This document shows positions 9,589 to 32,747 of a stretch of DNA of 32,909 nucleotides, piece after piece (the first letter of the stretch is position 1; every line of letters starts with the position of its first letter). The translations under genes were made by a program, and so were the position numbers. Source of the stretch: a virus (Duplodnaviria; Caudoviricetes); IMG/VR virus record IMGVR_UViG_3300036833_000578, positions 1-32,909 of that record; one strand, written 5' to 3'. The notes beneath the pieces are model-generated. The model saw nothing but the letters and a program-made list of their open reading frames with translations, was not told the DNA's origin and made no database searches.

Positions 9589-9590
9589 TA

Positions 9591-9806: not shown

Positions 9807-9863
9807 GTCCGCTCGCTGCGGTTGAGTGTGATATCGTGGCCTTGGTGTGGGATGTGGGTAACA

Positions 9864-11744: not shown

Positions 11745-11852
11745 GGGAGGGTTGATGAGCGCGAACGAGCAGATGTTGTTGCGCCAAATCCTCGAAACAT
11801 TGCGCGAGATCCTCGAAGTGTTGCGCAAGATCGAGCGGCAGATCCCCGCGGA

Positions 11853-13698: not shown

Positions 13699-13834
13699 GC
13701 GAGGCGCGGTGCCGAATGGCGGATCGTTTCGGTCAAATGGCGTCCGGTAGATACCCAGAGCGACAGCCGCGCCGGTGATGCGTGCAGGTAGGCGGCCGCC
13801 CTCCCCGTGGCGGTTGAAAACCGAAGGAGAGCCG

Positions 13835-14293
13835 ATGACCGAGTATCGAATGCCGCCGCTGCCGCTCGAGGGCGGTGATGTCGCGCGACCGGAAAAGCCG
13901 ATCCTGTGTCTCGATTTTGACGGGGTATTGCACTCCTACGTGACCGGTTGGAAGGGAGCGACCGAGATCCCCGACCCGCCGGTCCCCGGCTTTGCCGAAT
14001 TTTTGGCGGCCGCGGTGATGCGGTTCCGGGTGTGCGTCTATTCTTCGCGTTCGTCCTCGCCAGCGGGCATCAAGGCGATGCAGCGGTGGCTCTACGACGC
14101 GTTAGCCCAGGCCGCGGATCCCCGCACTGCCGCTGTGCTCTTCGATATGATCGATTTTCCCAAGAGCAAGCCGGCGGCGTTTCTGACGATCGATGATCGG
14201 GCGATGATGTTTACCGGGACCTGGCCGGCGGTCGAGGAGCTGGTCAACTTCCGGCCTTGGTATTGGCGTCCCCCAACCAAAGAGGAGGCATAG
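13835..14293 (+). CDS. HAD-superfamily phosphatase
   Basis: Motif I LDFDGVL, motif II VYSSR, KP, motif IV IDDRA. Confidence 0.88.
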   Translation: MTEYRMPPLPLEGGDVARPEKPILCLDFDGVLHSYVTGWKGATEIPDPPVPGFAEFLAAAVMRFRVCVYSSRSSSPAGIKAMQRWLYDALAQAADPRTAAVLFDMIDFPKSKPAAFLTIDDRAMMFTGTWPAVEELVNFRPWYWRPPTKEEA

Positions 14294-14295
14294 GC

Positions 14296-14511
14296 GTGCA
14301 TTACATGCGGCAGTTTTTTGTGTTTGATCACCTGCCCGAACACCTGCGGGAGATCAGCAAGCCGTTCGCCGAGCTCGCCGAGTGGATCGACGAGCAGCTG
14401 CCGGGAAACCCGGAAAAAGAGACGGCGCTGCGCAAGCTGCTCGAGGCGAAAGACTGCGCGGTGCGGGCCCGGCTGTTTAGGGGAACCCAAAGCCTGTCGG
14501 CGCGCGAGTGA
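14296..14511 (+). CDS. small helical-hairpin phage protein (possibly Acb2/Tad1-like)
   Basis: FDHLPEHLREISKPFAELA..IDEQLPGNPEKETALRKLLEAKDCAVRA; GAGGAGG RBS. Confidence 0.65.
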   Translation: MHYMRQFFVFDHLPEHLREISKPFAELAEWIDEQLPGNPEKETALRKLLEAKDCAVRARLFRGTQSLSARE

Positions 14512-14747
14512 CGGAGGAACAATCGCAGAAGCTGGCGAACATGATCGCCAGACTCGAGGAAGCGTTGACGCAGGCGGAGTTTGCGATTGATGCCGAGAGC
14601 CTGCAGGAATTCAAAAAGGTGCAGCCGCCGAGATTGATCCCGGTTCAAGATTCGGGGACGCTGGAGCTCAAGCATTGGATTCCGGTCTGGCAGGTCGCCG
14701 AGGTGTTGATGCGTCTGCGCGATGCTCGCGGAGGCGGCGATGCCTGA
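14508..14747 (+). CDS. hypothetical protein
   Basis: GTGA-coupled ORF. Confidence 0.6.
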   Translation: MTEEQSQKLANMIARLEEALTQAEFAIDAESLQEFKKVQPPRLIPVQDSGTLELKHWIPVWQVAEVLMRLRDARGGGDA

Positions 14748-15081
14748 TGAGACCAGGGTGTGGATCGCGCAGTGTCTGTGCTCGCAGCGGCACTGTATCG
14801 CGGGCACGGCCGACGAGGCGGCTGACGAGACGGAGGCCAGGCGCACGGTCGCCGAGGCGTTGCGCAGGCAAATTCGCGACTTGATCACCAGCGGTGCGAT
14901 CAACCCGTGGTGCGGGATCTGTCATGCGCCGCGCGAGAGTTGGCACTTCGAGCTCGGCCGCACCGTCTGGGCGACCCTGGAGGAGGCGGCGCTGGCGCTC
15001 GAAAAGAACGCGATCGAGCAGGCTGCGGCGGGGGTGATATTTGGTGAGTTCCTCGGTGTCAAAAGCCGGAGCAGGCATTGA
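14740..15081 (+). CDS. putative zinc-binding protein
   Basis: CLCxxxHC...CGIC; GGAGG RBS. Confidence 0.65.
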   Translation: MPDETRVWIAQCLCSQRHCIAGTADEAADETEARRTVAEALRRQIRDLITSGAINPWCGICHAPRESWHFELGRTVWATLEEAALALEKNAIEQAAAGVIFGEFLGVKSRSRH

Positions 15082-15151
15082 TCGACGTCAAAGGTTCCCG
15101 TTATCCCGGTAGACGGGATAGTGCCGCGGCCGAGCACTGAGCCTGCTCGCC

Positions 15152-15331
15152 TTATGGCTCTTCGCGGTCGTTCAATTTGTCGTCAAGTTCTGGTGATCCG
15201 CAGATGGGGCAGACGATCCAGATCAGTTTTCGTGGTGCTTCGGGGGTGTCGCCGGGGACCAGGCGGGCCACCATCCCGGCCTCGCCACCGTAAGGTGAGC
15301 ATTCGGGACAACCGGCGGGTTTGGGGATCAT
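15152..15331 (-). CDS. 59-aa zinc-ribbon protein (not in ORF track)
   Basis: MIPKPAGCPECSPYGGEAG...IVCPICGSPELDDKLNDREEP; GGAAG upstream. Confidence 0.55.
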   Translation of the reverse strand: MIPKPAGCPECSPYGGEAGMVARLVPGDTPEAPRKLIWIVCPICGSPELDDKLNDREEP

Positions 15332-15343
15332 AGGGCTTCCGTG

Positions 15344-15382
15344 AAACGAAAAAGGGCGCCGCTTTCCAGGGCGGCGCCCTTT
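15344..15382 (-). terminator. rho-independent terminator closing the sciP operon
   Basis: 12-bp stem AAAGGGCGCCGC/GCGGCGCCCTTT; U-rich tail on the minus strand. Confidence 0.85.
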
Positions 15383-15406
15383 AGTTGCAGAGAAACTCTT
15401 TATCGG

Positions 15407-15664
15407 CTATCCGGCGACGAGCCGCAAGGGTCGTGCCCGGCGGCCGCGGATGTCCGCCTTGAGGCCGCCCTTGCCGTGCCGCTCGACGGCGGTCTGCCAC
15501 TCGCTGAGCTCGGTCCGGGTGATCTCGTAACGGCGATAGGCTTCCTCGGCGGTCAATTCATTGAGGCGGACGGCCTCGACGACGGCCAGCTTTTTGCCCG
15601 GTGTCCACCGCTTCACCGGCGGCGCCGGCAGCGGCACCGGCAGAAAACGTGGTTGTGAGGTCAT
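15407..15664 (-). CDS. sciP: SciP-like CtrA inhibitor (DUF1153)
   Basis: LPAPPVKRWTPGKKLAVVEAVRLNELTAEEAYRRYEITRTELSEWQTAVERHGKGGLK matches SciP (LPP..T.RW..RRKA.VV.AV..GL.S.EEA..RY.L..EEF..WQ..I.RHG..GLR); GGAG RBS. Confidence 0.85.
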   Translation of the reverse strand: MTSQPRFLPVPLPAPPVKRWTPGKKLAVVEAVRLNELTAEEAYRRYEITRTELSEWQTAVERHGKGGLKADIRGRRARPLRLVAG

Positions 15665-15957
15665 GGTTGTCTCCATAAGTTCGAGGTCTCGTTTCTCGAC
15701 GCGGGTTCTCCGTGGCCCCGATCGCCGGGGGCGGGCACGCCGCCGGGGTGTTCCAGCACCTGCGGCGGCACCTCGCCGCCTGTGGCACGACAGCGCGCCA
15801 TGAACATCTCGACCTTGGCCGAGGAGATCACGGCGCCGTCGCCGGCAAACGCGCGTAGCTGTGCCACCCGCTGGCGGCACAGCTGGTCCGGGGTAGAACA
15901 GGCCGCGAGCAGCATTACTGCTGCTCCGGCGAGCGTGCGGGCTAATCGCGCCGACAT
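15661..15957 (-). CDS. lipoprotein
   Basis: Signal peptide with lipobox LLAA-C. Confidence 0.7.
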   Translation of the reverse strand: MSARLARTLAGAAVMLLAACSTPDQLCRQRVAQLRAFAGDGAVISSAKVEMFMARCRATGGEVPPQVLEHPGGVPAPGDRGHGEPASRNETSNLWRQP

Positions 15958-16256
15958 TGCTCTTCCTGTTCTTGACGAACACGGCTCAGGCGCTCTTCGA
16001 GCTCCTCGCGGGCGTCGTATCGAGCCCGGTCGATTGCTCGTTCCAGCTGGTGTTCGGCGTGGTGTAGCTGCTCGCAATGTTGCCAATGATCGCGGCCGCG
16101 ACCGCCCTGGACGGGCTGCGGGATGGCGATGCCAGGAGCGAGAGGGACGGTGACTCCAGGGACGGCGGGAACGGGTATCTGGACATATTGCGCCGCGGCC
16201 GGGAGGGCTGTGATGGCGAGTAGAGCGGCGGTCAGTGCAGTTTTTAACATTTCCAA
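15942..16256 (-). CDS. secreted/periplasmic small protein
   Basis: Sec signal MLKTALTAALLAITALPAAA-Q; two Cys flank a charged helical hairpin. Confidence 0.75.
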   Translation of the reverse strand: MEMLKTALTAALLAITALPAAAQYVQIPVPAVPGVTVPLAPGIAIPQPVQGGRGRDHWQHCEQLHHAEHQLERAIDRARYDAREELEERLSRVRQEQEEQCRRD

Positions 16257-16267
16257 TCTCCGTGGTT

Positions 16268-16459
16268 TCAGAGGCGGGGGGTGCGGCGGCGGTCGCCGAG
16301 GTGACGGCGGATAAACGCTGCCTCCTTCGCGGGGTCGAGGACCTCGCGAAGATCGCGATCGGCCGGCAATCGGGCGGCGCGCTCGAAGACCACTTCGAGG
16401 TGTTCGAGCGCCCGCCGAAGGCGGTCGATGATGGGGGTCAGATCGTCTGGGCTCTTCAT
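16268..16459 (-). CDS. small hypothetical protein
   Basis: ATGA overlap with the ctrA-like stop. Confidence 0.6.
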   Translation of the reverse strand: MKSPDDLTPIIDRLRRALEHLEVVFERAARLPADRDLREVLDPAKEAAFIRRHLGDRRRTPRL

Positions 16460-16794
16460 TGCCGCAGCACGTAACCGCGGCCCCAGACGGTCTGGATCAG
16501 CTTATCGGCCGAGGTGAGGGTCGCGGCGAACTTGCCGCGGATCTTGCAGACGAAGACGTCGATGATCTTCTGGCAGGGCTCGGTCGTCGACGGGTAGAGG
16601 TGATCGAGGATCTGGCTCTTTGAGACGATGGTGCCGGCGTGCGAGGCCAGGCACTCGACGAGCGCATATTCCTTTTTGGTCAGACGCACCGGGTGTCCGG
16701 CGAGCTCGACCGTGGTGGCGACGCAGTCGATGCGCAGCGGGCCGATCTGGTGCCGTGCGCAGGCCGGGTTTGGTTCGCTAGACGGATCTGGCAT
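16456..16794 (-). CDS. CtrA-like winged-helix DNA-binding domain lacking the receiver domain
   Basis: VRLTKKEY...HLY...EP.QKIIDVFVCKIR...IQTVWGRGYVLR closely follows CtrA ([22 protein letters not shown]...IETVWGRGYVLR); AGGAG RBS. Confidence 0.88.
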   Translation of the reverse strand: MPDPSSEPNPACARHQIGPLRIDCVATTVELAGHPVRLTKKEYALVECLASHAGTIVSKSQILDHLYPSTTEPCQKIIDVFVCKIRGKFAATLTSADKLIQTVWGRGYVLRQ

Positions 16795-16991
16795 ATGATG
16801 GTTCTCCTGGTTCTAGTAGTGCCCAACACAACGAACCGGAAGGACGCCGCTCCCTCTGCATTGATGGATCCGGGGACGGGCTCAAACCGTCGCCGGTGAC
16901 AGATCGATGGGGACGGTCCGGGGAAGGCCGGTCACTCGGCCCGAGACCCCCGGCCCTCGCGAGTGTCCGCGGGGGGGCGGCGTCGATCGGT

Positions 16992-17029
16992 ACGCCGTAC
17001 ATATACGGCTAACGCCGTACAGAAACAAG
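16992..17029 (-). promoter_or_regulatory. promoter/operator upstream of the ctrA-like operon
   Basis: Palindrome TACGG-N6-CCGTA at 17004-17019 plus an extra ACGCCGTAC at 16992-17000; minus-strand TTGTTT-N17-TATATG. Confidence 0.55.
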
Positions 17030-17045
17030 GGTAAATTAAGCGAGT

Positions 17046-17270
17046 TTAGCGGTCGCGGGGGCGGCTTCGCTTGACCAGCGAGCGGACCGAACGGCCCTCC
17101 TTGCGCTCGTTGGACGCGATCAGGTCGAGGGCGAAATTGATCAGATAGACGATCGCGGCAGTGCGCGAGGGAGCGACCTGCTGGTCTTGACACCAGCCGT
17201 CGACCCGCTCGACGAGCTCCGGGGGGACGCGGAGCTCGAGACGGGCGGTGGCTCGGGGGGTGCGCGGCAT
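17046..17270 (-). CDS. ribbon-helix-helix (Arc/CopG-like) regulator
   Basis: RLELRVPPELVERVDGW......SRTAAIVYLI. Confidence 0.85.
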   Translation of the reverse strand: MPRTPRATARLELRVPPELVERVDGWCQDQQVAPSRTAAIVYLINFALDLIASNERKEGRSVRSLVKRSRPRDR

Positions 17271-17276
17271 CCCGTC

Positions 17277-17304
17277 ATTGTACGGAAAACGCCGTATAGG
17301 TCAA
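17277..17304 (-). promoter_or_regulatory. sigma70 promoter with embedded operator; probably a leaderless transcript
   Basis: TTGACC-N16-TACAAT, then 6 nt to the ATG; TACGG-N6-CCGTA at 17281-17296 overlaps the spacer and -10. Confidence 0.75.
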
Positions 17305-17535
17305 TGGATTGTCACGCAGCGGTAGTGAACGGCGACGGGTAACCCGGTGACCGCCAGGGCGCGGTTGTCCTCGCGCTGAAACTGCCGGGCGAGTGGGCTG
17401 CAGTCGGCCCAGCCCTGATGGTAGCTCAGCGGTTTGCAGCCGGACTGGGTGTGGGTCGCGTAGCACTGCAGAAGGGCTACCAGGAGCAGCGATACCAGGC
17501 TTCTCATGGGCGCTGGAAATCGGCGGGGGTTTCCA

Positions 17536-17868
17536 TCAGGTCTCTCCCGCCGGTTCCTCCGCCAATTGTGGCGAGGGCAGAGGCTTGAGCAGTTGTTCCA
17601 GCGCCGCGACGTGTTCGGGACACAGCAAGCCGTCGCGATACCACTGGGTGCCTGGTCCAAAATCGAGGACAGGTGTCGGGTGCGCCTGCCAGAAGACGTG
17701 AAGGTAGACCCAGCCCCGAGGCAGGGCGGTGCCGTTGGCGCAAGCGACGGCCACGCAGTTGCCCCAGGCGCAGGCGGTGGGTAAAGCGGCATATTGGCTT
17801 GGTGATATCTCGACCTGACCGAGCAGCCGGAAGGTCGGTGCCTTGCTGCGGCGTTGGTGACGGTTCAC
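17536..17868 (-). CDS. putative zinc-binding hypothetical protein
   Basis: CAWGNC...LPRGW...LCPEH; GGAGGA RBS. Confidence 0.7.
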   Translation of the reverse strand: MNRHQRRSKAPTFRLLGQVEISPSQYAALPTACAWGNCVAVACANGTALPRGWVYLHVFWQAHPTPVLDFGPGTQWYRDGLLCPEHVAALEQLLKPLPSPQLAEEPAGET

Positions 17869-17952
17869 TGATATTCCTCCGCGTGTTGCATTAAGCGCCG
17901 GAACAATATGACATCAACCCGTGCTTCGGGCAAGTGTACGGGAGGGGATTTC

Positions 17953-18291
17953 GTGCCACCACGTTGGTCAAAGGAGAGCGACGCCTATGTTGACCGCCGC
18001 ACCGCGGAGGGAGCGAATTACGCGACGATCGCCGGTGAGCTCGGGCCCGAGATCACCGCCGCGGCGATCGCCGGCCGGATGCGGCGACGAATACTGGCCG
18101 CCGCCGGCCGCGAGCCGATCAGTGCCGCCGTGCTCGATGAGCGTCTTACAACCGAGGGATGTCGCTGGGTCATCGGCGAGCCCGGTCGCGGTGGTGACTG
18201 GCGTTGGTGCGGGGCAAAAATTGTCGATGGTAGCTGGTGTGCGGCGCACGCCGCGATTGGGCGAACACGAGGGGGGAACAAACCACTATGA
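17953..18291 (+). CDS. gcrA: GcrA-like cell-cycle regulator (compact)
   Basis: N-terminal W....EG.....IAGELG..IT..AIAGRMRR helix-turn-helix; C-terminal CRWVIGEP....WCG......WCAAH; GGAGG RBS before GTG. Confidence 0.82.
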   Translation: MPPRWSKESDAYVDRRTAEGANYATIAGELGPEITAAAIAGRMRRRILAAAGREPISAAVLDERLTTEGCRWVIGEPGRGGDWRWCGAKIVDGSWCAAHAAIGRTRGGNKPL

Positions 18292-18860
18292 GGCAGCAAC
18301 GAAACAGGCGGCGGGTCGGGGACGAGGAAGCGCGGATTGCACCACCGCCGGAGCGGTTTCGGGCAGATCACGTTTCGGGTGCGCTGGTGGTGCGTTGCGA
18401 AGAGCCGGTGGTCGATGCCGATGGCGGAGTTGGCCGGCCGTGGAAGGCGCTCGACACCTTGGCCAGGATGGAGCGCGCCGGCTCGATCTCGCGTGGCATG
18501 CGAGCGGCCGGGGTCCTCTTTAACGAGTATTTTAACAATGCCGGGTTAGATCCGCTGTGGGCCGCCGACCCAACGCGGATTCCGGTATTGACGATGAGCG
18601 GCAAGCCCTGGTCGATCGGTCGCCGCGGCTCGGGCTCGGCCCTCGAGGCGGTGATCGATGCATTGGTGATGCTGGGCGGGATTTCGTCGCCCGGCGGGTC
18701 GTGTGCCTGGCATGTTCTGGGGTGCGAAATGACAATCGAACGCTGGGCAATCTCGCGATCGTGGTGCGGTCACCCGGTGCACCGCAAGGTGGCGTCCGGC
18801 ATCCTGTTGACGGACTTGGGGATTTTGGAAAATTACTTTGGGCTGAGCAAAGACGCTTGA
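18288..18860 (+). CDS. DUF6456-like putative late-gene regulator/antiterminator
   Basis: LARM...GSIS....AAG..F motif and C-terminal HTH ending L..YFGL; sits immediately before the packaging genes. Confidence 0.6.
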   Translation: MRQQRNRRRVGDEEARIAPPPERFRADHVSGALVVRCEEPVVDADGGVGRPWKALDTLARMERAGSISRGMRAAGVLFNEYFNNAGLDPLWAADPTRIPVLTMSGKPWSIGRRGSGSALEAVIDALVMLGGISSPGGSCAWHVLGCEMTIERWAISRSWCGHPVHRKVASGILLTDLGILENYFGLSKDA

Positions 18861-18947
18861 CAGGGTGGGGTCCCCCAGAAAAAGTTTTTGCCCGACGGGT
18901 GGGGGTGCGTCCCCCACCTGGACCAAACCCAGAACATCGGAAAAGTG

Positions 18948-21152
18948 ATGCCGAGCTACGAGCCGCAGGGCGCGCAGCTGCGTGCCTTCTCCGCCTCCAA
19001 TGCGTTTCTGCGGGCCTTGATCGGGCCGATCTACGGCGGCCGCAAAAGCTGCTGCATCAACGATATCGTTCGACGGGCGACAATCCGGCGGTGGGCGAAG
19101 CAAACTCGCTGGCGATGGGTCGTGGTGGCGCCGATCCGCCGCGAGCTCGAGCGATTTGTGATCCCGACGATCAAGAATTGGCTCGAAGTCGGCGAATACG
19201 ACGACAAAGGGCGGCATTTTGCCCTGCATTACCGCCTCGAGGATGGGGTTCAGCGTCTGATCGAGATCGATTTCCTCGGTATGGACGACGCGCAGGACCG
19301 AAAACGCTTTGGTGTGGCCACGGCGACGGGTGTCTGGCTCGACGATGCCCGGAATTTGAGCGAAAGCGTTCTCGAAGACGCGATGCGCATCGCCGGCACG
19401 TACCCGACACCGCTCGCCGGTGGGGCGATGTGGTCGGGGGTGATCTGCTCGTCGCGGATGCCGCCGCCTGGTCATTGGCTGGTGCGCAGGCCAGAGGACC
19501 CGGGCGATTTACAGCTGTTTCGCCAGCCTGGCGGGCGGACTGCGGAGGCTGAGAACCTGCCGGCGCTGCGGGCCAGGGGCTTCAGCTACGAGGCGTTTGC
19601 CGGCGAGCGCGACGCCGACTGGATCAGGGTCAATATCGACGGCGAGCTCGGGCAAACCGCCACCGAGGCCGCGGCCGAGGCGGAACGAGCAGCGGCCCGC
19701 GAGCAATTGACCCGCTGGGTCGGGCTGACGATGCCCGATTTGACGCCGGCAAGGCATCACGAGCTATTGATTGCCAAGCTCGAGGCCCTGGCGCGGCGCG
19801 AAATCAAGCGTCTGATGTTCTTTTTGCCGCCTGGATCGGCCAAAAGCACCTATGGCAGCGTGCTTTTCCCCTCCTGGTACATCGGCAACTACCCGACGCA
19901 CTCGGTAATCGCCGCTTCGCACTCCAAAGAGCTGGCCGAACGGTTTGGCCGCCGGGTGCGCAACATCGTCGGTTCACCAATCTTTCGCGAAACGTTCGGA
20001 TTTGGCCTCAGTGGCGATTCGGGTGCCGCCGGGCGCTGGGAAACCGCTCGCGGGGGCGAATATTTTGCCGTCGGCGTCGACGCCTCGGTCACCGGCCGGC
20101 GCGCTCATCTCGGCATCATCGATGATCCGGTCAAAGGGCGGGCCGAGGCCGACAGCGCGACGGTCCGGCAGCACGTTTGGGAATGGTACAAGGCCGATTT
20201 CTGGACCCGGCTCGTGCCCGAGGCGACGCTGCTCTACATCGGCACCCGGTGGCACGAGGACGATCTCGCCGGGCGCCTGCTCGAGGACGCCAAGGCCGGC
20301 GGCGAGCAATGGGAAGTGGTCAGCCTACCGGCGATTGTCGAGGAGGAGGGGGATGCGCTAGGCCGGATCATTGGCGAGCGGCTCTGGCCCGAGTGGTACA
20401 CCCCGGAGATGCTGGAGGTCGCCCAGCGCGACACGCGCAATTGGTCGGCACTCTGGCAGCAGCGGCCAATGCCGGAGTCGGGCGACTATTTCCAGAATGA
20501 CTGGGTGCGCTGGTACGACAGCGCCCCGCCGCGTGACCGGCTGCGCACCTATGGCGCCTCGGATTATGCGGTCAAGGCCAATGCCGGCGACTGGACGGTG
20601 CACCTGGTCGCCGGGATCGACCCCAACGATGATCTCTATCTCCTAGATCTGTGGCGCAAACAGACCGCCTCGAACGAATGGGTCGAATCGGTCATCGATC
20701 TGATGGATCTGTGGAAAACCATCACCTGGGCCGAGGAGGCCGGGCAGATCGAGAAGGGGGTCGGACCGTTTCTGACCAAGCGCCAGCTCGAGCGCAAGAT
20801 TTACGCGGTCAGAAAGCAATACAGCTCGGCCGCCGACAAGGCGGTGCGAGCCCAGGCGATCCGCGGCCGGGTGGCGATGGGCAAGGTGTACTTGCCCAAG
20901 CGCGCGCCCTGGGCGCCGGTGCTGCTCGACGAAATGCTGCGCTTTCCGGCTGGGAAAGCAGATGACCAGGTCGACGGCCTGGCCCTTTTGGGCCGGATGC
21001 TCGATGAGATGGTGCCGGGGAGTAAGCCAAAGCCGGCGGCCGAGGAGCCGCGCGGGGTTTCCGGGATGACTCTCGACGAGCTGTGGAAGCTCGATAAGCG
21101 CTACTTCAAAAACGGCCGGTTTGTCGGGGATGGTCGGCCACTGAGGATCTGA
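18948..21152 (+). CDS. terL: terminase large subunit with an extra N-terminal degenerate ATPase domain
   Basis: Main module: LPPGSAKS (Walker A), GIIDDP (Walker B), IGTRWHEDDL, nuclease ASDYA...DDQVD. The N-terminal ~235 aa resemble a second TerL ATPase. Confidence 0.92.
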   Translation: MPSYEPQGAQLRAFSASNAFLRALIGPIYGGRKSCCINDIVRRATIRRWAKQTRWRWVVVAPIRRELERFVIPTIKNWLEVGEYDDKGRHFALHYRLEDGVQRLIEIDFLGMDDAQDRKRFGVATATGVWLDDARNLSESVLEDAMRIAGTYPTPLAGGAMWSGVICSSRMPPPGHWLVRRPEDPGDLQLFRQPGGRTAEAENLPALRARGFSYEAFAGERDADWIRVNIDGELGQTATEAAAEAERAAAREQLTRWVGLTMPDLTPARHHELLIAKLEALARREIKRLMFFLPPGSAKSTYGSVLFPSWYIGNYPTHSVIAASHSKELAERFGRRVRNIVGSPIFRETFGFGLSGDSGAAGRWETARGGEYFAVGVDASVTGRRAHLGIIDDPVKGRAEADSATVRQHVWEWYKADFWTRLVPEATLLYIGTRWHEDDLAGRLLEDAKAGGEQWEVVSLPAIVEEEGDALGRIIGERLWPEWYTPEMLEVAQRDTRNWSALWQQRPMPESGDYFQNDWVRWYDSAPPRDRLRTYGASDYAVKANAGDWTVHLVAGIDPNDDLYLLDLWRKQTASNEWVESVIDLMDLWKTITWAEEAGQIEKGVGPFLTKRQLERKIYAVRKQYSSAADKAVRAQAIRGRVAMGKVYLPKRAPWAPVLLDEMLRFPAGKADDQVDGLALLGRMLDEMVPGSKPKPAAEEPRGVSGMTLDELWKLDKRYFKNGRFVGDGRPLRI

Positions 21153-21566: not shown

Positions 21567-21950
21567 ATGGCCTTTGTCGTCGAGGATCCCGATCGGCACG
21601 CCGGCCAGGTGGTCGCGAACGGACATTGCGTGAGATTTGCCCAGGAAGCAGCCCGCCGTCTGCCGCATACCTCACAATGGCGGCGTGGCGCCCGGGTGCG
21701 CTACGGGAATGTGCCGCCCGGTACAGTCATCGCGACGTTTGAGTCCAACGGCTGTTATGGCAACCACATCGACGGGCGCTCGCACGCCGCGATCCTGGTC
21801 GCCGAGGAAGCGGGCGGACTGCGCGTCTGGGATCAATGGGTCGGGCATCCGGTGCAGCAGCGGCTGATCCGGTTTCGCGACGGCGCCGGCAAGCCGGTCA
21901 ATGACGGGGACGCTTTTCACGTCGTCGAGACCGAAGAAAGCCTCGCCTGA
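21567..21950 (+). CDS. BPSL0067/Tae2-like papain-fold peptidoglycan peptidase
   Basis: GHCVRF...P.TSQWRRG..V....PGTVIATF..G.Y......HAA......VWDQW with a Cys/His dyad. Confidence 0.8.
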   Translation: MAFVVEDPDRHAGQVVANGHCVRFAQEAARRLPHTSQWRRGARVRYGNVPPGTVIATFESNGCYGNHIDGRSHAAILVAEEAGGLRVWDQWVGHPVQQRLIRFRDGAGKPVNDGDAFHVVETEESLA

Positions 21951-23692
21951 TGGCCGATCTAGCGGTTGCCTCGACAGTTGTCGGCACAATCGAGGAGCGC
22001 AAGGACCTCGGCACCGAGCCGAATGCGATCTGGCGCTTCTGGAACTCGCAGCTAAAGCTCGCCGAGCGAACCGACGAGGACTGGATCAAGCGGGGGCGCC
22101 AGGCGGTCGACCGGTACCGCGACGAGCGCGACCAAAACGAGGCGCGGGCCAGCAAATACAATGTCTTGTGGTCAAATGTGGAGACCCTCAAGCCGGTGCT
22201 CTACGGGCGCACACCGGAACCGGACGTCGCCCGCCGGCACAAGGACCAGCACGACGCGGTGGCCTCGCTGGGCGCCCAGATCCTCGAAACCGCGCTCGAT
22301 TACGAGAATGATATCGAAGAATTCGACGCGGTGATGCAGCAAGTCGTCGAAGATCGGTTATTGCCGGGTCGTGGTGTCGCCAGAGTGTTCTACGAGCCGG
22401 AATTTGGCGAGGAAGAGGAAGACCAAGACGCCGAACCCGACGAAGAAGGTAATCAGCCGACATTTCAGTCGGTGACCAATGAGAGAGCGCCGGTGCGCTA
22501 TGTATTCTGGGAAGATTATCGAGAAACGCCGGCCCGCACCGAAGGTGAGATCTGGTGGAAGGCCTACCGGGTATTTATGACCCGCGACGAGCTGGTCGAG
22601 CGTTTTGGCAGTGAAATCGGCAAAAAGGTGACCCTCGATTACACCCCGTCGGGGGTGCATGCGGTGGCCAGCGAGGCGCAGTGGGGCCCGCTGGCGGATA
22701 TGTTCAAAAAGGCGACCGTTTGGGAGATTTGGGACCGCAACCGCAAGGAAGCGGTGTGGATCGCCAAGGCCTGGACGGATGCGCCGCTCGACACCCAGGA
22801 CGATCCCTTGGAATTGCCGGATTTTTTCCCGTCGCCGCCAGCTTTGCGGGCGACCACGACCAATGAGCAGCGGGTGTCGGTCAACGATTACGTCGAATAT
22901 CAAGATCAGGCGATGGAGCTCGACACATTGACCGCGCGGATCGACCGCCTGACCCGGGCACTCAAGGTCTCCGGTGTCTATGCGGGCTCGGAGAAGATGA
23001 CGCTGCAGCAGCTGGTCGACGATTCGAGCGAGAACCGGCTGATCCCGGTCGAGGATTGGACTGGTTTTGCCGGCGACAAGGGCGGGCTCAACGGGCTGAT
23101 CCAGTGGCTGCCGGTCGAGCAGATCGCCCGCGTCTTGATCCAGCTCTATGACGCCCGCGAGCGCACCCTGAGGATCATCTATCAGACGACCGGCATTGCC
23201 GACATTCTGCGGGGCGAAACCAATCCGATCGAGACGCTGGGGGCGCAGCAGCTCAAGACCCAGTTTGCGACCCGGCGCATCACCCGGGCGCAAAAGGACG
23301 TCGCCCGCTTTGCCCGCGACCTGCTGCGGCTCAAGGGTGCAGTGATGGCGCGGCATTTTATGCCCGAGACACTCTCGCGGATGTCCGGGCTCCCCGAACC
23401 GCTCCCGGCGCTGCCGCCACCCCCGCCAATGCTGATTCCCGCACCGTCTCCTGCGGTGCCCAGCCCGGCGACCATGGGCGGCCCGGCGTCCCCGTCGGCC
23501 TCCGTGCCGGGGGCGGTGCCAGGTGGTCCCGGTGCACCGCCCGGTGCTGTTGGACCAGTGCCGGCCATCGGTGGTCCTGGACGTCCGGGGCCGCCGGTTG
23601 CTTCCTCGGTGCCCGGGGCCCGCCTGGCTCCCGACGGCCGTCATTACGTGCCGGACCCGCGGCGTCCGGGCAAATACCTGATGGTGGCCTGA
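21950..23692 (+). CDS. portal protein, N-terminal part
   Basis: YNVLWSNVETLKPVLY..TPEPDVARR; DRLLPGRG..RV; FFPSP; TGIADILRG....ETLGAQQLK. Ends in a Pro/Gly linker plus an unrelated tail. Confidence 0.9.
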   Translation: MADLAVASTVVGTIEERKDLGTEPNAIWRFWNSQLKLAERTDEDWIKRGRQAVDRYRDERDQNEARASKYNVLWSNVETLKPVLYGRTPEPDVARRHKDQHDAVASLGAQILETALDYENDIEEFDAVMQQVVEDRLLPGRGVARVFYEPEFGEEEEDQDAEPDEEGNQPTFQSVTNERAPVRYVFWEDYRETPARTEGEIWWKAYRVFMTRDELVERFGSEIGKKVTLDYTPSGVHAVASEAQWGPLADMFKKATVWEIWDRNRKEAVWIAKAWTDAPLDTQDDPLELPDFFPSPPALRATTTNEQRVSVNDYVEYQDQAMELDTLTARIDRLTRALKVSGVYAGSEKMTLQQLVDDSSENRLIPVEDWTGFAGDKGGLNGLIQWLPVEQIARVLIQLYDARERTLRIIYQTTGIADILRGETNPIETLGAQQLKTQFATRRITRAQKDVARFARDLLRLKGAVMARHFMPETLSRMSGLPEPLPALPPPPPMLIPAPSPAVPSPATMGGPASPSASVPGAVPGGPGAPPGAVGPVPAIGGPGRPGPPVASSVPGARLAPDGRHYVPDPRRPGKYLMVA

Positions 23693-23715
23693 TGCGAGCT
23701 CGAGCGCGTTGAGCG

Positions 23716-25899
23716 ATGTCGGAAACACGGATCGACCCGGACACGGGTGCCACCCTCGTTCCGGTCGATCACGATCCCTATAGCGATCCGCCGCCGGCCG
23801 GTTACTTTGACAAGATCGGTCAGGATCTCGCCGATTTCTGGCAGCAGCCGCTGGCCCACGTCAAACAGCGGCTGTCCGATATCGGCCAGTCGTTTAGCGA
23901 TGTCGCGACCAGTGGATTGCAGCGCCAGGCCGAGCTCACCGGGGCCGACTATTCGGGCCAGCCGTTTATCGGGGTGGATCCCTCGAGCGGCGAGCTCACC
24001 GGGCGATTGCCGGCATTGGCCGAGCTGGCGCGCAGCGGGATGGCCGGGCCGGTGCCGGGTGGCGCCTTGGGTGCGGGGCCGGCGATCCTCGGACGAGCGG
24101 GCCGTGCTGCGGCCGAGGCGGGCAATCTCGACACGCCGATCAGCGACACGTTGCAGGCCGGCAAGTTTGCCGATCAGCTGCGAGCCGAACACCTGGCGCG
24201 CGACAAGGGACTGCCGCTCAGCGGTGCCGATCAGCCGGTCAGCCCGCCGCCGCACATCCAGACGCCGGCCGACATGGATGGGCTGGTCAACCGTTACGCC
24301 GATCTTGCCGAAAGCGGGGCTAATGCCAAGGATTGGTACGCTCAAAGCGGACGGGCAATCCTCAACGCGGCGGGTGATCCCGAGGCCGCCGACCGCCTCG
24401 CCGCGACATTGGCGGTATCCTCGCCGCGCGCGAGTGTCGCCGAGAATGCGGCAAAAGCGGTGACCCTGTGGAACCAGGCGATGACCAACGAGCCGGCACT
24501 CGCCGTCGGCGGCCGTGGTGGCATGCAGATCGGCGAGCGGGCCGCACCGCTGCTCTACGAAGGGGCGCCGATGACCGGTGAGAAGACCGGGCCCTTCAAA
24601 ACCGCGCTGGGGTTGACCTGGGATCCCGACCCGGCCGGGCATCCCTTTGTCAACGACATCTGGAACATGCGCGCGGCCGAATATCCGCCCGAGCTCGGCA
24701 GTGACAAGGCAGCTCCTCAGTACACCGGCACACCGACCCTGGGACAGCACAACTTCACCCGCATTTTGGCTGATCGGGCGGCCGATGTGCTGAATTCACG
24801 AACCGGTGAGAACTGGAGCCCGGAGCAGATCCAGGCCGCGGTGTGGGCTGGTAAGAAATCGCAGGTCGAGGGCACCCCGGTCGGCGATGCGGCGTTCAAT
24901 TTCGCCGACGCTTTGAAGAACCGCGTTGCGCAGCAGAGCTGGGAGTCGGCGCCGGGCGAGACCGCGGTCAACCATATGCCGGAGTTTCACCAGGCCTCGC
25001 CGATCGACCAGCAGGCCTATCACGACGCGATCCGTGGCGTGCTCGAGGACGATCAGGGGCACGACGTCATCTCGCGCCACCTGGGGCTATTGACCGAGCC
25101 CAGCTTTGGTGGGCCGGGGGTGTTTCAGGGTCAAGTGCGGCCGGGAAGCCAGGCGCAGAGCCTCGCCGGTGCGGCCCTGCAGGGCGGCTATATGGGCGGG
25201 GTCGATCAGTCGACCCGCGATCTGCTCGATACCGCGGAAGCCACTCGAGGGCTGTTGCTGCGCCAGGATGCGGCGGCCTGGCATTTGCCGACCTATCGCG
25301 CCGGTCTCAAGCCGGGCGACAGCAACATGGTCGACGTCAACATCGGCCGGCCGCTCAGCGCCGACGAGGCGCGTTCGGTGGTCGATGCGATGCAGGGAGC
25401 GACCGGGAAGAGCTTCTTTAGCCCGATCGCGACGCAGAACGGGTTCCGCTTGCAGAACGTGCCCGATCAATCGGGCATGAAGAACATAGACTTCCAAAAG
25501 TCGGTTGAAAAAGCCCTCGGAAATGCCGATTTTAAAGGGGTTGACAAGGCCGAGCTGACACCGGCCTTTGCCGATGGGAACTACATCTCGAACGATTGGC
25601 GGGAGCAGCCCAATGGTCAAGGTTATCTGGAAGCCCTCGCCGGGACCGGAAGACCCGATCTTCAGAGAAGGTCCTCGGAGCTACTCGCCACATTGGGGCC
25701 GCGCCTATCTCAGGTCGAAGAACAGTTCGCCCAAACCCACGGATGGAGCCCCGACCGAGCCACCCGGGTCTGGGAGCAAAGCCCGCAAATCCAGCGATAC
25801 GGAAACACCCTAGTGCCGGCGCCGCCGCGGCCGTGGGCCGGTGGGCGGCCGCCGGCATTGGTGCCGGTCGATCATGATCCGTTTGCGGCGGGACCGTGA
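23716..25899 (+). CDS. large protein with an HhH-GPD/DUF7178-like domain, possibly a virion-injected protein
   Basis: WY...LAVSSP..SV.EN...GEK..PF...L...VNDIW.MR...WSPEQIQAAVW; LVPVDHDP[YF] at both termini. Confidence 0.6.
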   Translation: MSETRIDPDTGATLVPVDHDPYSDPPPAGYFDKIGQDLADFWQQPLAHVKQRLSDIGQSFSDVATSGLQRQAELTGADYSGQPFIGVDPSSGELTGRLPALAELARSGMAGPVPGGALGAGPAILGRAGRAAAEAGNLDTPISDTLQAGKFADQLRAEHLARDKGLPLSGADQPVSPPPHIQTPADMDGLVNRYADLAESGANAKDWYAQSGRAILNAAGDPEAADRLAATLAVSSPRASVAENAAKAVTLWNQAMTNEPALAVGGRGGMQIGERAAPLLYEGAPMTGEKTGPFKTALGLTWDPDPAGHPFVNDIWNMRAAEYPPELGSDKAAPQYTGTPTLGQHNFTRILADRAADVLNSRTGENWSPEQIQAAVWAGKKSQVEGTPVGDAAFNFADALKNRVAQQSWESAPGETAVNHMPEFHQASPIDQQAYHDAIRGVLEDDQGHDVISRHLGLLTEPSFGGPGVFQGQVRPGSQAQSLAGAALQGGYMGGVDQSTRDLLDTAEATRGLLLRQDAAAWHLPTYRAGLKPGDSNMVDVNIGRPLSADEARSVVDAMQGATGKSFFSPIATQNGFRLQNVPDQSGMKNIDFQKSVEKALGNADFKGVDKAELTPAFADGNYISNDWREQPNGQGYLEALAGTGRPDLQRRSSELLATLGPRLSQVEEQFAQTHGWSPDRATRVWEQSPQIQRYGNTLVPAPPRPWAGGRPPALVPVDHDPFAAGP

Positions 25900-25922
25900 A
25901 AACTTGAGCAATAGGAGCTCTG

Positions 25923-26156
25923 ATGGCGTTGCACCCTTCCGTCTTTGAATACCTCAAGCCCTCCGAAGAGCAGCTGAGCCAGATGGCCGATGTTCGCGCA
26001 CACTTTGCCAGCTTCGCCCAATACCTCGACCACGCCCTGCCCGAGGGTCCCGACAAGACCTATGTGCTGCGCCATCTGCGCGAATGCGCGATGTGGTCAA
26101 ACATGACGTTGGTGCGTACCGCCGACGGCACGCCGCGGACCCCGCCGCGGAGCTGA
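25923..26156 (+). CDS. Acb2/Tad1-hairpin-like small protein (putative immune-signal sponge)
   Basis: FEYLKPSEEQ...VR..F..FA..LD..LPEGPDK...L..L.E..MWSN; AGGAG RBS. Confidence 0.6.
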   Translation: MALHPSVFEYLKPSEEQLSQMADVRAHFASFAQYLDHALPEGPDKTYVLRHLRECAMWSNMTLVRTADGTPRTPPRS

Positions 26157-26159
26157 GTG

Positions 26160-26423
26160 ATGGCGATCAAGGCCGAAGAGCTGGCGCTGATGGCCGAGGG
26201 TAAGGGCTGCCTCGGCAAGGCGGCCGACGACGAGCCGCTGTTCATCCTGCGGGCCAAGGATCCGGCGGCAGCCTTTATCGTGCGGGTGTGGTGTCAGCTC
26301 GCCTGGCAGGCCGAATTGCACGAGCCGGAGAAGATCGAGGACGCCAAGGCGCTGGCCAATCGGATGGAGGCCTGGCGCATGCGGAATATTACCGCGGCGC
26401 CGCTGCCCTGGCGGAAGGGCTAG
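26160..26423 (+). CDS. conserved small phage protein (DEPxFxLRAxD motif)
   Basis: CL.KAADDEPLFILRAKDP.A...VR.W......KI.DA...A.RM..W. Confidence 0.7.
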   Translation: MAIKAEELALMAEGKGCLGKAADDEPLFILRAKDPAAAFIVRVWCQLAWQAELHEPEKIEDAKALANRMEAWRMRNITAAPLPWRKG

Positions 26424-26959
26424 GGCTTGGTCTCGGGCGAATAGCCCCAGTCGACCGGGTCCTTTTCGCTGCCTGGGGTTCGTATCGGCGGGGTCGGCTT
26501 CCAGCCCGGCGGGATCGGCGGCGGCCACTCGGGCTCGCGGATCACGACGCCATCCTCGCCGCGTACCCACTCGCCTCGCAGCACGTCGGTGTGGCCCAGG
26601 CTGGCCTCCTCGTCGACCACCGCGAAATCGTGCTTGCGGCCGAGAAGCCGGTCGCCGGGCCAATCCCATTTGATCGGCGTGCCCTTAACGGTCGGCGGGG
26701 GGCCGCTCTTGCCGAACAGGAATTGCAGGAAGGCGGTCGATTTGGGCGCCGTCACGTGCGGCACCGGCAGGACCTGGCCGCCGAGGCGCGGCTCCCACCA
26801 AGGCGGGATCGTCGGGCGGAAGGCGCGCAGGAAGTGATCGGCGCCGATCAGATCGCCGATGTGGCGCCACATCGCGATGATCGACCGGCGCTGCTGGTAC
26901 TCGTCCCAGGTTTCCGGGCGATCGTCGGGGCGGAGCGGGATCGGAGGAGGTAGAGCCAT
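26420..26959 (-). CDS. Pro/Trp-rich hypothetical protein, antisense to the late operon
   Basis: Likely start MALPPPIPLRPDD; its stop overlaps the stop of the convergent gene. Confidence 0.45.
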   Translation of the reverse strand: MALPPPIPLRPDDRPETWDEYQQRRSIIAMWRHIGDLIGADHFLRAFRPTIPPWWEPRLGGQVLPVPHVTAPKSTAFLQFLFGKSGPPPTVKGTPIKWDWPGDRLLGRKHDFAVVDEEASLGHTDVLRGEWVRGEDGVVIREPEWPPPIPPGWKPTPPIRTPGSEKDPVDWGYSPETKP

Positions 26960-26979
26960 GGTCAGGACAGTAGCCCGAA

Positions 26980-27918
26980 ATGTCTGACCAGCGGAACAAT
27001 GTTGTCGGGTTTCCGGGTGGTGGCGCGGTGCCGCCGGGGCCGGCTGGTGGGCCGCCTCCGGGGATCGGGGGAGCGCCTGCCCCACCGGGAATGACCGGGT
27101 CACCTGCCAGGCCTGGTCTGCCACCGCCGGGCCCTGGGGGGACTGCTATTTCAGGGCCCGGCGGGGCATCACCAGTCCCAGGCGGTCCGGCGCCGGGGGG
27201 TGCAGCGCCCGGGCCGGGGCCGGTGGCGGCGCCGGGTATGACGCTCAACCCGGCGTTTATGCAATGGCAGCAGATGAGCCAGGCCTGGCACGCCGAAAAC
27301 AACCGGCGGAAACAGCAGTTCCTGCAGGCGTGTCACACCCTGCGCCACGATGTGCGGACCGGCTACAAGATCGACATCGAGGCCGATTCGACCATCGCGC
27401 CCGATGAGCAGGCGGAAAAGCAGGCGCGCACCGAGTTTCTGCAGTCGATCATGCCGATGTTGCAGATGATCATCCCGGAAGTGCAACAGAACCCGCAGGT
27501 CGCCCAGCTGGCGGCCGCGCTGGTCATGTTCGGGGTGCGGGCGTTCCCGGCGGCGCGCGGGCTCGAGGATACGTTCCTGCAGGCCTTTGTCGCCCTGGCG
27601 CAGTCGCCGCCGCAGCCCAATCAGGGGCAGGGCAAAGGCAACACCAAGTCGCCGATGGAGATCATGACCGAGGCCAAGACCGCGCAAGGCGATCAGCAGA
27701 TCGACGCCGCCAAGGTCCAGGCCGATCAGCAGAAAAACTCGGTCGAATTGATGAAGGCCTACATCGCCGCCCAAGGCGATCGCGCGAAACTGGCGCAGGA
27801 AGGCCAGCTCCGTGCCGCCGAGCTCGCGCAGCAGGGTCAGGAGATCCAGGACCGGTCGGCGCTCGACGCGGCGCGCACCAGCCATTTGATCTCGCGCGAC
27901 ACCGCGGGGCTGGTCTAA
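26980..27918 (+). CDS. portal protein, C-terminal part
   Basis: Pro/Gly linker, then LRHDVRTGYKIDIEADSTIAPDEQAEKQARTEFL...FGVRAF..AR.LE, then a Q/A coiled-coil barrel. Confidence 0.82.
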   Translation: MSDQRNNVVGFPGGGAVPPGPAGGPPPGIGGAPAPPGMTGSPARPGLPPPGPGGTAISGPGGASPVPGGPAPGGAAPGPGPVAAPGMTLNPAFMQWQQMSQAWHAENNRRKQQFLQACHTLRHDVRTGYKIDIEADSTIAPDEQAEKQARTEFLQSIMPMLQMIIPEVQQNPQVAQLAAALVMFGVRAFPAARGLEDTFLQAFVALAQSPPQPNQGQGKGNTKSPMEIMTEAKTAQGDQQIDAAKVQADQQKNSVELMKAYIAAQGDRAKLAQEGQLRAAELAQQGQEIQDRSALDAARTSHLISRDTAGLV

Positions 27919-30428: not shown

Positions 30429-31670
30429 ATGCCAGCTGAAGACGAGACCAGAAGCACACTGCCGGAGACCGGCAACACGCCGAGCGATCTGCGGACGATG
30501 ATCGCCGACACCTTGCGCGACGCCAAGGAGGCGGACGCGGCCGCACCGGCGGCACCCGCTGCGGGCGGCTTGTTCGAGGACCGGACCGCGGTCGGAAGCA
30601 CCGCGGCGGGAAGCGGCGAGCCGCCAAAGCCCGGCGAAGGCGAAGACAAGGACAAGGACAAGGGTGGAGAGTCCGGGGCACCGCCGGCACCTGGTCCGAC
30701 CGAGCCGGCCGAGCGCGAGCCCGCCGGGCCGGCGGCCGCACCGCAGCACTGGGCGGCCGAGGACAAGGCGACTTTTGAGGGATTACCGACGGCCGCCAAG
30801 GGGCCTTTTCTCAATCTCTACAAGCGGATGGAGAGGGGGTTCCAGCCGCGGCTCGAGCGGCTGGCGACCCTCGAGAAGGATCTGCCGGCGATGCAGGAGC
30901 GCGTCCAGACCTATGACCGCGACTATTCGGAGATCGACCGGGCATTTGGCCCGCACCGCGAAAAACTGCGTTCGCAGGGCCGCGGGCCGAAGGAGATCCT
31001 GCAAATTTGGTACAACACCGAGGCCGGGCTCGCCAATCCCGAGCAGCGTGACGCGGTGATCGCCAACATCATCGCCGCCTACCAGTGCGACCCGTTCAAG
31101 ATCGCCGAGCATCTGAATGCCAGGCGGGGGTTTGCTCCGCAGTCCCCGGGTGGCGACGGGGGTGGGCAGCCGCAGCCGCAAGTGCGCAGCCAGATCGATC
31201 CGGCGCTGGAGGCGCGGTTTAGCGCCCTGGAGAACGCCGAGCGCAATCGCGTCGAGACGATCGTGCGCGACAACATGGACAACGCCAAACGCATCTATGA
31301 GGACTTCGCCAACGCCAAAGGGGCAGATGGCGCGCTCCTCCATCCCGATCTCGTGGCGCTGGAGCCCGTGATGACCGCTTTTGCCGATGTCGACCGAAAG
31401 GCCGGCAAGCAGATCGATCTGCAGGACCTCTACACCCGAGCCGAATGGGCCACTCCCTCAACCCGTGACCGTCTCCTCGAAAGGCAGGGCGCCGACGAGC
31501 AGAGAAAAGCGGCAGACGAGCGGAAGGCCAAAGCCGAAGCCGCACGACGGGCTTCCTCGAGCGTCACTGGTTCCCCTGGACCCGGTGCAGCGCCGCAGGA
31601 TCTCGGCGCGCCGGACCGATCCATCCGTGATGAAATCCGGGCCCAAATGAACGGCGGGCGCCGCAGCTAG
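30429..31670 (+). CDS. capsid scaffolding protein
   Basis: Acidic/Pro-rich N-terminus, APQHW..E....F..LP, coiled coil, C-terminal SIRDEI; directly upstream of the capsid gene. Confidence 0.85.
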   Translation: MPAEDETRSTLPETGNTPSDLRTMIADTLRDAKEADAAAPAAPAAGGLFEDRTAVGSTAAGSGEPPKPGEGEDKDKDKGGESGAPPAPGPTEPAEREPAGPAAAPQHWAAEDKATFEGLPTAAKGPFLNLYKRMERGFQPRLERLATLEKDLPAMQERVQTYDRDYSEIDRAFGPHREKLRSQGRGPKEILQIWYNTEAGLANPEQRDAVIANIIAAYQCDPFKIAEHLNARRGFAPQSPGGDGGGQPQPQVRSQIDPALEARFSALENAERNRVETIVRDNMDNAKRIYEDFANAKGADGALLHPDLVALEPVMTAFADVDRKAGKQIDLQDLYTRAEWATPSTRDRLLERQGADEQRKAADERKAKAEAARRASSSVTGSPGPGAAPQDLGAPDRSIRDEIRAQMNGGRRS

Positions 31671-31715: not shown

Positions 31716-32747
31716 ATGCCCTCACCGAACCCGAATTGGGGTGAAATCACCACAACCACGTTGTTCAATCGGAGCCGAAAACTCGCAGACAACGTGACGA
31801 AGAACAACGCCATCTTGGCGAGACTGTCGCAAAGGAACAAAGTCAAGCCTGTCGATGGCGGTCAGGCGATAGTGCAGGAGCTCGAATACAGCGAGAACGG
31901 GACCTATAAAAGGTACACCGGCTATGACATTTTGAATGTCTCGCCGTCGGATGTATTCACCGCCGCACAGTATCCGTGGGCGCAGGCCGCCGTCGCGGTC
32001 AGCATCAGCGGTCTCGAGGAATTGCAGAACAGCGGCGAAGAGCGGATGATCGATCTGCTCGAGTCGCGCATCGGCAATGCCGAGAGAACGATGACCAACG
32101 GGATTTCGGGCGACTGCTACGGCAACGGCACCTTGGACGGCGGCAAGCAGATCGGTGGTCTGCAATTGCTGGTCGCCGATGTGCAGACTGCCGGAGTGGT
32201 CGGTGGTATCGATCGCGGGTTGTGGCCGTTTTGGCGGGCCTACATTGGTTCCTTCTCGGCGGCGGCAATAACTCCGGGAACAGCCACCATCCAAACCATG
32301 ATGAACCGCCAATGGTTAAATCAGGTCCGAGGAACTGATAGACCAGACCTAATAATAGCCGACAACGCTTACTTCAGTTTCTACTGGGAAAGCTTGCAAG
32401 CGATTCAGCGGATCACCCAGGCGAACGAAGGAATGGCTGGTTTCCAGACGCTTAAATTTATGGACGCCGACGTTGTATTTGACGGCGGCTTCCAAGGTGT
32501 CGCGGGCGGTACCGGGACGACGATCGGCGGTGGGATCACCTGGGCGACCCCGAGTGGTGCTCCGTCCAATCATATGTACTTCCTCAACACCGACTATATA
32601 TTCCTGCGTCCGCACCGTGAACGGAACATGGTTCCGCTCAATCCCGACCGGTTTACGGTCAACCAAGACGCAATGGTCAAGTTGGTGGGGTGGGCCGGCA
32701 ACATGACGATGAGCAACGCGTTCTTGCAAGGCGTGCTGATCAATTAG
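31716..32747 (+). CDS. major capsid protein (HK97 fold)
   Basis: TTT...RSRKLADNVTKNNA.L..L....GG..I...LEY; AAQYPW.Q.AV..SISGLEELQNSG; W.GNMT.SN..LQG. Confidence 0.93.
   Translation: MPSPNPNWGEITTTTLFNRSRKLADNVTKNNAILARLSQRNKVKPVDGGQAIVQELEYSENGTYKRYTGYDILNVSPSDVFTAAQYPWAQAAVAVSISGLEELQNSGEERMIDLLESRIGNAERTMTNGISGDCYGNGTLDGGKQIGGLQLLVADVQTAGVVGGIDRGLWPFWRAYIGSFSAAAITPGTATIQTMMNRQWLNQVRGTDRPDLIIADNAYFSFYWESLQAIQRITQANEGMAGFQTLKFMDADVVFDGGFQGVAGGTGTTIGGGITWATPSGAPSNHMYFLNTDYIFLRPHRERNMVPLNPDRFTVNQDAMVKLVGWAGNMTMSNAFLQGVLIN

Follow-up and report, generated by a model that had tools for sequence, protein, structure and literature searches.

Phage portals are treated as single-chain rings that must nucleate the head, bear the packaging pressure and gate the DNA, and the locus described here raises the question of whether such a ring can be built from two separately encoded chains. 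It lies in the IMG/VR provirus record IMGVR_UViG_3300036833_000578, analysed over its whole length of 32,909 nucleotides (nt; completeness 55%) and hereafter called the window, in which a portal gene of podophage type stops at position 23692 and its missing part follows from a fresh start at 26980. The evidence presented below identifies this as a genuine, recurrent fission of the portal gene, which very probably gives a two-chain, non-covalent portal.

Two open reading frames for one portal

The two portal open reading frames (ORFs), termed chain N and chain C, and the parts of chain N that bear on the split are as follows:

21950..23692, plus strand: portal chain N, 580 amino acids (aa), phrog_12082, conserved core to approximately 23392
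23387..23446, plus strand: conserved proline-rich arm of chain N, with 7 invariant residues in 16 sequences and ordered in the model of a fused relative
23447..23617, plus strand: variable Pro/Gly tract, probably the first half of an ancestral disordered loop, judging from the loop of relatives and the P0015 model
23618..23692, plus strand: C-terminal 24-aa beta module ('APDG tag'), a candidate cargo-docking hook on the basis of conservation, predicted fold and recurrence on other proteins
26980..27918, plus strand: portal chain C, 312 aa, with its own start, phrog_12082 positions 525-699; start and head conserved in the related loci L002 and L003

Chain N covers positions 14-473 of the 715 positions of the portal profile phrog_12082 (E 1e-138), and chain C, located in a different frame, covers positions 525-699 (E 1e-20). 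Jointly the two ORFs span the whole length of a podophage portal, which no longer exists as a single polypeptide, given the stop at 23692 and the fresh start at 26980. These profile positions bear out the sequence-only reading of the window, according to which the portal ORF ends at 23692 and the missing conserved part restarts at 26980 in another frame, and they refute the possibility that the C-terminal ORF does not align to portal C-termini. The same reading had let chain N end in a Pro/Gly tract; the stop codon stands, whereas the real terminus is the conserved 24-aa module at 23618-23692.

Within the arm, residues G480, L481, P482, P486, P489, P492 and P499 are invariant across the 16 aligned sequences. 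Chain C consists, in order, of an NVV-F motif, a Pro/Gly head, an NPAF-QW helix from 27247 and a KIDIEADST strand from 27364, and ends with crown-type and then barrel-type helices. The search of solved structures by sequence returned nothing for chain N, and its alignment gave just two chance-level matches. The portal fold was recognised through the AlphaFold model of the fused relative P0015, and not through the window's own chains; this model matches the solved podophage portals of Pan3, N4, SU10 and P22 (best E 9e-12).

Fused relatives share the order proline arm, variable Pro/Gln/Gly loop, NPAF-QW helix and [KR]IDIEADST strand, and the predicted local distance difference test score (pLDDT) of the P0015 model is 87-91 in the arm (residues 501-520), 42-49 in the loop (521-560) and approximately 94 in the helix. 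In this prediction the disordered loop is flanked by the ordered proline arm on one side and by a long helix on the other, and chain C contributes one short beta strand and the final helices. We infer packing of the arm against the helix and an insertion directed towards the inside of the head; in SU10, as far as described in PMC9509320, the portal wing lines the inner capsid face and contacts DNA. Split members carry the arm and part of the loop at the end of chain N, and their chain C begins with the remainder of the loop. An NVV-[PF]-type loop motif, present inside the loop of 11 of 80 fused proteins, lies on chain C in 16 of 38 split loci, on chain N in 7, on both in none and on neither in 15, a distribution that fits cuts at different points within one loop. 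A duplication of the linker, suggested earlier from the resemblance of the two Pro/Gly tracts, was not upheld: the tracts fail to align (best BLASTP E 14, a weak test on low-complexity sequence), no DNA repeat joins them among the 20 largest direct-repeat families shown for the window, and unsplit relatives hold both flanks in one loop. By comparison with these relatives, the tracts are the two halves of a single ancestral loop, with no duplication.

Authenticity, recurrence and selection of the split

When viral, metagenome and genome collections were queried with the C half or the N half, 185 loci (prefix L) were recovered, which together with the window comprise 83 split loci, 80 fused loci, 22 whose N end falls outside the contig and 1 lacking C; the ratio of split to fused does not reflect prevalence, because the loci are redundant and were mostly found with split-type queries. 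The tree set contained 32 split and 128 fused representatives, including extra fused proteins, and left out L093 (a false split, with a later frameshift), near-copies (≥97%) and loci with fewer than 415 N-core positions, among them L033 and L067, discussed below. The FastTree phylogeny groups the window with other split representatives in a 23-member clade (support 100). Along the tree the split/fused label must change at least 7 times, each change being imposed by strong branches. That all splits go back to one origin was ruled out by an approximately unbiased test on 17 rows, which rejected a single clade for the 7 split rows (p 5e-41). As judged from these trees, the split recurs in separate lineages, the number of changes not separating fissions from re-fusions. 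Over most of chain C, identity to fused proteins is at most approximately 43%, whereas it rises to 96% for standalone C-like proteins, none of the 120 listed having an N-core match (some may be contig fragments). The GTDB scan gave at least 7 loci, all fused, and a host genome with the split of the window clade was absent among the matches listed.

One contig of run X1, possibly the source sample, covers 23104-27430 with zero differences, and a diverged relative in run X4, from a separate study, spans 23188-25708 and 25681-27918. Both junctions are bridged by these contigs, so that the arrangement is real and the assembly chimera considered in the sequence-only reading is refuted. The defective prophage considered beside it does not account for the arrangement either, which is no product of decay, because the split clade has 23 members, both halves are under purifying selection and near-complete relatives lack another phrog_12082 portal: all five relatives at 94-100% completeness contain exactly two phrog_12082 matches, N and C, and no second portal of this family. 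A chimera, or a defunct prophage in which the portal gene is broken, could be suspected from a provirus record that is 55% complete and in whose scanned ORFs neither an integrase nor a tail or ejection gene block was identified (a PHROGs scan of the 32 ORFs in 1-18860 gave one family match, with integrase absent). Set against contig bridging in two studies, 23 split lineages, purifying selection on the window's own halves and near-complete relatives, it is vanishingly improbable. The split is neither an assembly chimera nor a decayed gene.

The ratio of nonsynonymous to synonymous substitution rates (dN/dS) in 17 pairs was 0.02-0.19 for the N core and 0-0.34 for the part of chain C past the helix, the chain N of the window giving 0.15-0.16 versus L002 and L003. 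The N and C trees were concordant (Mantel r 0.85 over 25 rows, a value reached in none of 5000 permutations) and shared 13 of 22 splits. By these measures both halves are under purifying selection and descend together, consistent with the earlier impression that both are intact. In most pairs the rate of evolution is higher for chain C than for chain N, and a barrel-deleted portal has been solved (7sz4, as far as its record describes), as might be expected if chain N alone were the portal and chain C were now a separate accessory or dispensable protein. This is very unlikely, since chain C retains the invariant KIDIEADST strand, which lies inside the folded body in the model, and since it is found downstream of chain N in the loci examined and co-descends with it, although these loci were found with C and are hence biased.

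Two chains or a rejoined protein

Spacer length ranges from a 4-base stop/start overlap up to 4472 nt and varies even among L012, L019, L021 and L022, whose N cores differ by dN of approximately 0.01; the 28 spacers longer than 100 nt fall into 12 unrelated clusters. Spacer gains and losses fall within the last codons of chain N. The final codons of chain N in L012 and L016 match those that close the cargo genes of L021 and L017, to which these loci are closely related, and the L017 cassette is flanked by an 11-nt direct repeat, which together are read as cassette loss by deletion. Chain C starts at its own codon, often overlapping the upstream stop, and none of the 11 overlap regions tested contains a canonical slippery heptamer. 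Two separately made chains are most likely, because the spacers vary and no intron, intein or slippery site was found. The two-chain portal, one option of the sequence-only reading, is further supported by separate starts, selection, co-descent and recurrence, whereas its other option, rejoining by splicing or recombination, is unsupported as the normal route, given the free variation of the spacers, the zero-gap members, into which neither an intron nor an intein would fit, and the separate start of the second gene.

In greater detail, the halves could be covalently rejoined post-transcriptionally or post-translationally, be it through an intron that escaped recognition, ribosomal bypass, a frameshift or protein ligation, for which a similar P-x-M-x-[IL]-x-P motif beside the cut on both chains could mark take-off and landing points, frame C being, moreover, open upstream of the N stop in zero-gap members. 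However, the twin motifs are explained by the fused relatives, no Rfam family was matched in the window, no intein family was found, chain N contains zero cysteines, all 11 overlap regions tested are free of canonical slippery heptamers, spacers of 0-4.5 kb contain unrelated genes, and chain C uses its own start codon, often coupled to the upstream stop. The 3' tag is also conserved as protein, so that chain N is expected to be translated to its stop. We regard covalent rejoining as quite unlikely.

Rejoining at the DNA level deserves separate consideration on account of L033:1-877 and L067:1-884, which are approximately 99% identical to the split L032 at the join and, relative to it, carry an in-frame deletion of approximately 450 nt at a 6-nt microhomology, resulting in an apparent re-fusion; both contigs begin inside the N gene, and L067 also has a later frameshift. 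If the spacer were removed in this way in part of the population, only re-fused genomes would make a working portal. This is highly improbable: the loci's own substitutions at the join and the loss of the conserved arm fit a heritable deletion, a spacer-skipping joint is not listed in 4 runs (rare variants being lost from contigs), the window spacer is bordered by neither a repeat nor a recombinase site, and a published particle-producing phage carries the split sequence.

That phage, the Bradyrhizobium phage OP596615 (ppS10JBj-1), has its portal split at the same loop with a GTGA overlap, giving chains of approximately 522 and 236 aa, and belongs to a separate clade of 7 split loci; of the remaining loci among the 82 examined, 73 are fused and 2 unscored. 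A sequencing error is unlikely, because the split is shared by this whole clade, and no further phrog_12082-family match was found in OP596615. The main text of PMC10127595 describes a host, Bradyrhizobium japonicum S10J, that spontaneously releases podophage particles, with DNase-treated particle DNA enriched at one region, the ppS10JBj-1 prophage; taken together with the split sequence, a split portal appears compatible with DNA-filled particles. The word 'portal' is absent from that main text, and the supplements may annotate one. In OP596615.1 (L273:2944-5219) both portal halves are annotated as hypothetical, which is how annotation misses split portals, and the start of chain C is annotated at 4698, which lies past the conserved strand, whereas the GTG at 4509 is the likely start.

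Several points weigh against a two-chain portal. The two-chain state is deduced from gene sequences and a predicted structure, and the modelled protein, P0015, is approximately 54% identical to the window in the N core and was treated as a monomer. In the window, chain C has a weak ribosome-binding site, an AGGA located 12 nt before its start and preceded by an antisense ORF. The dN/dS of the proline arm was 0.66-1.3 in 3 of 17 pairs (22 codons, noisy), and the re-fused L033 and L067 are without the arm, so it may be dispensable, and they indicate that DNA-level rejoining can occur. Finally, the particle evidence of ppS10JBj-1 comes from a separate split lineage with 35% identity and without cargo, and its host may conceivably provide a helper portal from elsewhere.

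In the two-chain portal, encoded as two genes cut at a floppy loop, chains N and C would be made independently and would likely come together non-covalently as a portal ring of normal form, held together by packing of the arm on the helix, by a strand joining the chain N sheet and by ring contacts. The freed end of chain N likely serves as a hook for a cargo protein.

The closest parallel is the nrdA-a / mobE / nrdA-b locus of phage Aeh1, a case of genes-in-pieces (Crona et al., PMC3045599). As far as that account goes, an essential phage gene is there likewise encoded in two parts with a gene between them, the chains assemble without splicing, and new terminal tails are present, one of which in our case also seems derived from inserted DNA. 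The window similarly has two separately started, intact and selected genes, and is not filed under genes-in-pieces because a homing nuclease is lacking. Unlike in Aeh1, moreover, the protein concerned forms a structural ring, the spacer can be exchanged or be empty, the cut arose more than once, and the tail is proposed to bind cargo instead of the partner chain. Single-chain portals (SU10, as described in PMC9509320, N4, P22 and Pan3) share the fold of the fused-relative model and the terminase-portal-capsid order; the window differs by its two genes and by a proline-arm/loop/helix insertion before the last conserved strand. The Myxococcus Mx9 portal is unsplit. Fractured genes with split inteins, as presented in PMC2677866, also consist of a gene in two parts and an intervening gene; the family scans of the window recognised no part of an intein. 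No report of a two-gene phage portal was found in the literature searched, subscription papers being outside its coverage. A natural two-chain portal that evolved several times and occurs in a cultured phage would reveal a tolerated cut point and make the folding order of the ring testable.

Cargo genes, the terminal tag and genomic context

The gap between the portal ORFs (23693-26979; 3,287 nt) contains four ORFs, all with coding-like high third-position GC content:

23716..25899, plus strand: 727-aa cargo protein, DUF7178-like by ESM Atlas, with a VDHDP[FY] motif at each end
25923..26156, plus strand: 77-aa Acb2/Tad1 hairpin-domain protein (PF24729, E 1e-9, 38.5 bits versus a cut-off of 27)
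26157..26423, plus strand: 87-88-aa phage protein of an unnamed family (Atlas 0.91-0.93 to unnamed viral clusters)
26420..26959, minus strand: 179-aa ORF, no family (third-position GC 0.87)

The earlier observation that these four ORFs lack transposase, maturase, homing endonuclease and intein features agrees with the Pfam, PHROGs and NCBIfam scans, which gave zero matches to such families; a homing endonuclease was not found, and a remote nuclease is possible, as the 727-aa and 179-aa ORFs are without a firm family. The VDHDP[FY] motifs of the 727-aa protein lie at 23758-23781 and 25861-25884. This protein has no match in Pfam, PHROGs, NCBIfam or PADLOC (8 ORFs, no matches), gives ESM Atlas feature matches of 0.91-0.93 to DUF7178 clusters, and shows a partial structure match to DUF7178 (template modelling score 0.79 by target over 176 residues) with no hmmscan match to PF23802. 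The 77-aa protein is a candidate anti-defence signal sponge, going by its family name. Relatives of the 179-aa ORF in runs X3 and X4 carry a net in-frame shortening of 234 nt.

Between the window and 12 relatives, the tag that ends chain N shows 0-3 amino-acid differences and 8-16 synonymous differences in 24 codons. It is predicted as a small beta fold (pLDDT 87-90) and has no Pfam family, weak sequence matches among solved structures (best E 0.003) and one fold match (Z 2.3). In a set of 41 non-redundant split loci, all 13 that carry the tag, and 0 of the 28 that do not, possess a gap gene with [IV]PVD[HY]DP motifs, the motifs lying near both ends of the gene in nearly all of the 13. In three tagged near-complete genomes the motif pattern is restricted to the cargo gene, and in two untagged ones the exact pattern is absent. 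A pattern scan of viral contigs recovered 71 distinct tagged proteins, 16 being chain N and 55 others, of which 50 have a motif gene within 400 nt downstream (antisense background: 0 motifs in 1.87 Mb). The family scan took in 51 of these 55; 13 match portals of two other families, phrog_1216 and phrog_156, approximately 10 match lysozyme, transglycosylase, peptidase, tape-measure or released-protein families, and most others are unnamed. In cyanophage Pam5 the tag ends the tail lysozyme, and two motifs stand at the start of the next gene. The occurrence of the tag on three portal families and on ejection-type proteins, mostly with a motif gene next to it, favours a docking role. A separate observation concerns L228:3476-6880 (minus strand), a tagged phrog_156 portal of 1135 aa with an insert of approximately 350 aa that matches terminase families and is probably an intein.

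That the 24-aa tag binds the VDHDPF motifs and thereby loads the 727-aa protein into the head for ejection is an evenly poised proposal. With somewhat less assurance, we tentatively suggest a widespread, undescribed loading system of short-tailed phages, in which a tag ending the upstream virion protein would bind VDHDPF peptides of the next gene's product, the upstream protein being an ejection protein, a whole portal or the free end of a split portal; a tag-cargo cassette may have split the portal and turned its loop into twelve hooks. Against a hook, tag and motif agree in 5 of 5 independent pairs, for which the sign test gives p 0.06 only, and the tag, being adjacent to the cargo, can move with it as one cassette, so that adjacency alone could keep both together. 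In addition, 28 of 41 split loci are without the window's tag, so the tag does not explain the split.

In phage T4, a short capsid-targeting sequence directs unrelated internal proteins to the head; here the motif is different, it is found at both cargo ends, and a candidate receptor ends the upstream gene. No paper on the VDHDPF motif was found in the literature searched, with subscription papers again outside coverage. If the tag-motif pair binds, it would bear on how short-tailed phages load ejected proteins and would offer a very small tag for placing proteins in capsids. A similar link between effector-like cargo and a portal exists in polyvalent proteins and in effectors fused to portals or MuF, for which Iyer et al. 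(PMC5512222) propose packaging and injection; the fusion there is covalent, whereas the cargo here is a protein of its own with short motifs at its termini, and a 24-aa module sits on the portal.

Both portal ORFs are placed between an uninterrupted terminase gene and an uninterrupted capsid gene:

18888..21152, plus strand: terminase large subunit, uninterrupted (phrog_38, E 6e-109)
30429-31670: probable scaffold gene, from its position; no family match
31716..32747, plus strand: podophage major capsid protein, uninterrupted (phrog_9953, NF033394)

The terminase ORF encodes 754 aa (phrog_38 profile approximately 760 long) with the Pfam ATPase match beginning at residue 310, and residues ~1-250 resemble, by eye, a second, degenerate ATPase-type segment. 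A BPSL0067-family gene (NF033857, E 2e-18) at 21567-21950 lies immediately 5' of the portal gene and is also present in L002 and L003, and family scans placed a tail fibre with an S74 chaperone domain at the record start (843-2276). The promoter and terminator scan gave a signal at chance level. The window stretch is present in soil metagenomes and, among the datasets listed, in no RNA dataset; a chain C relative at 63% identity carries the label Stellaceae, which hints at an alphaproteobacterial host.

Among split-portal relatives, the major capsid gene is interrupted by 720-860 nt, possibly introns, after query residue 69 or 27 in L012:7839-9717, L013:10389-12267 and L016:10726-12473. The portal spacer of L020 contains a transposase-like ORF (L020:6828-7784, minus strand), which we take to be IS1595-like. 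In another split lineage (L142, L143 and L156), chain N ends in a different small module, EG..TRF.NGQ.W, and the spacers hold other genes, one of them presumably resembling, by eye, a sugar aminotransferase.

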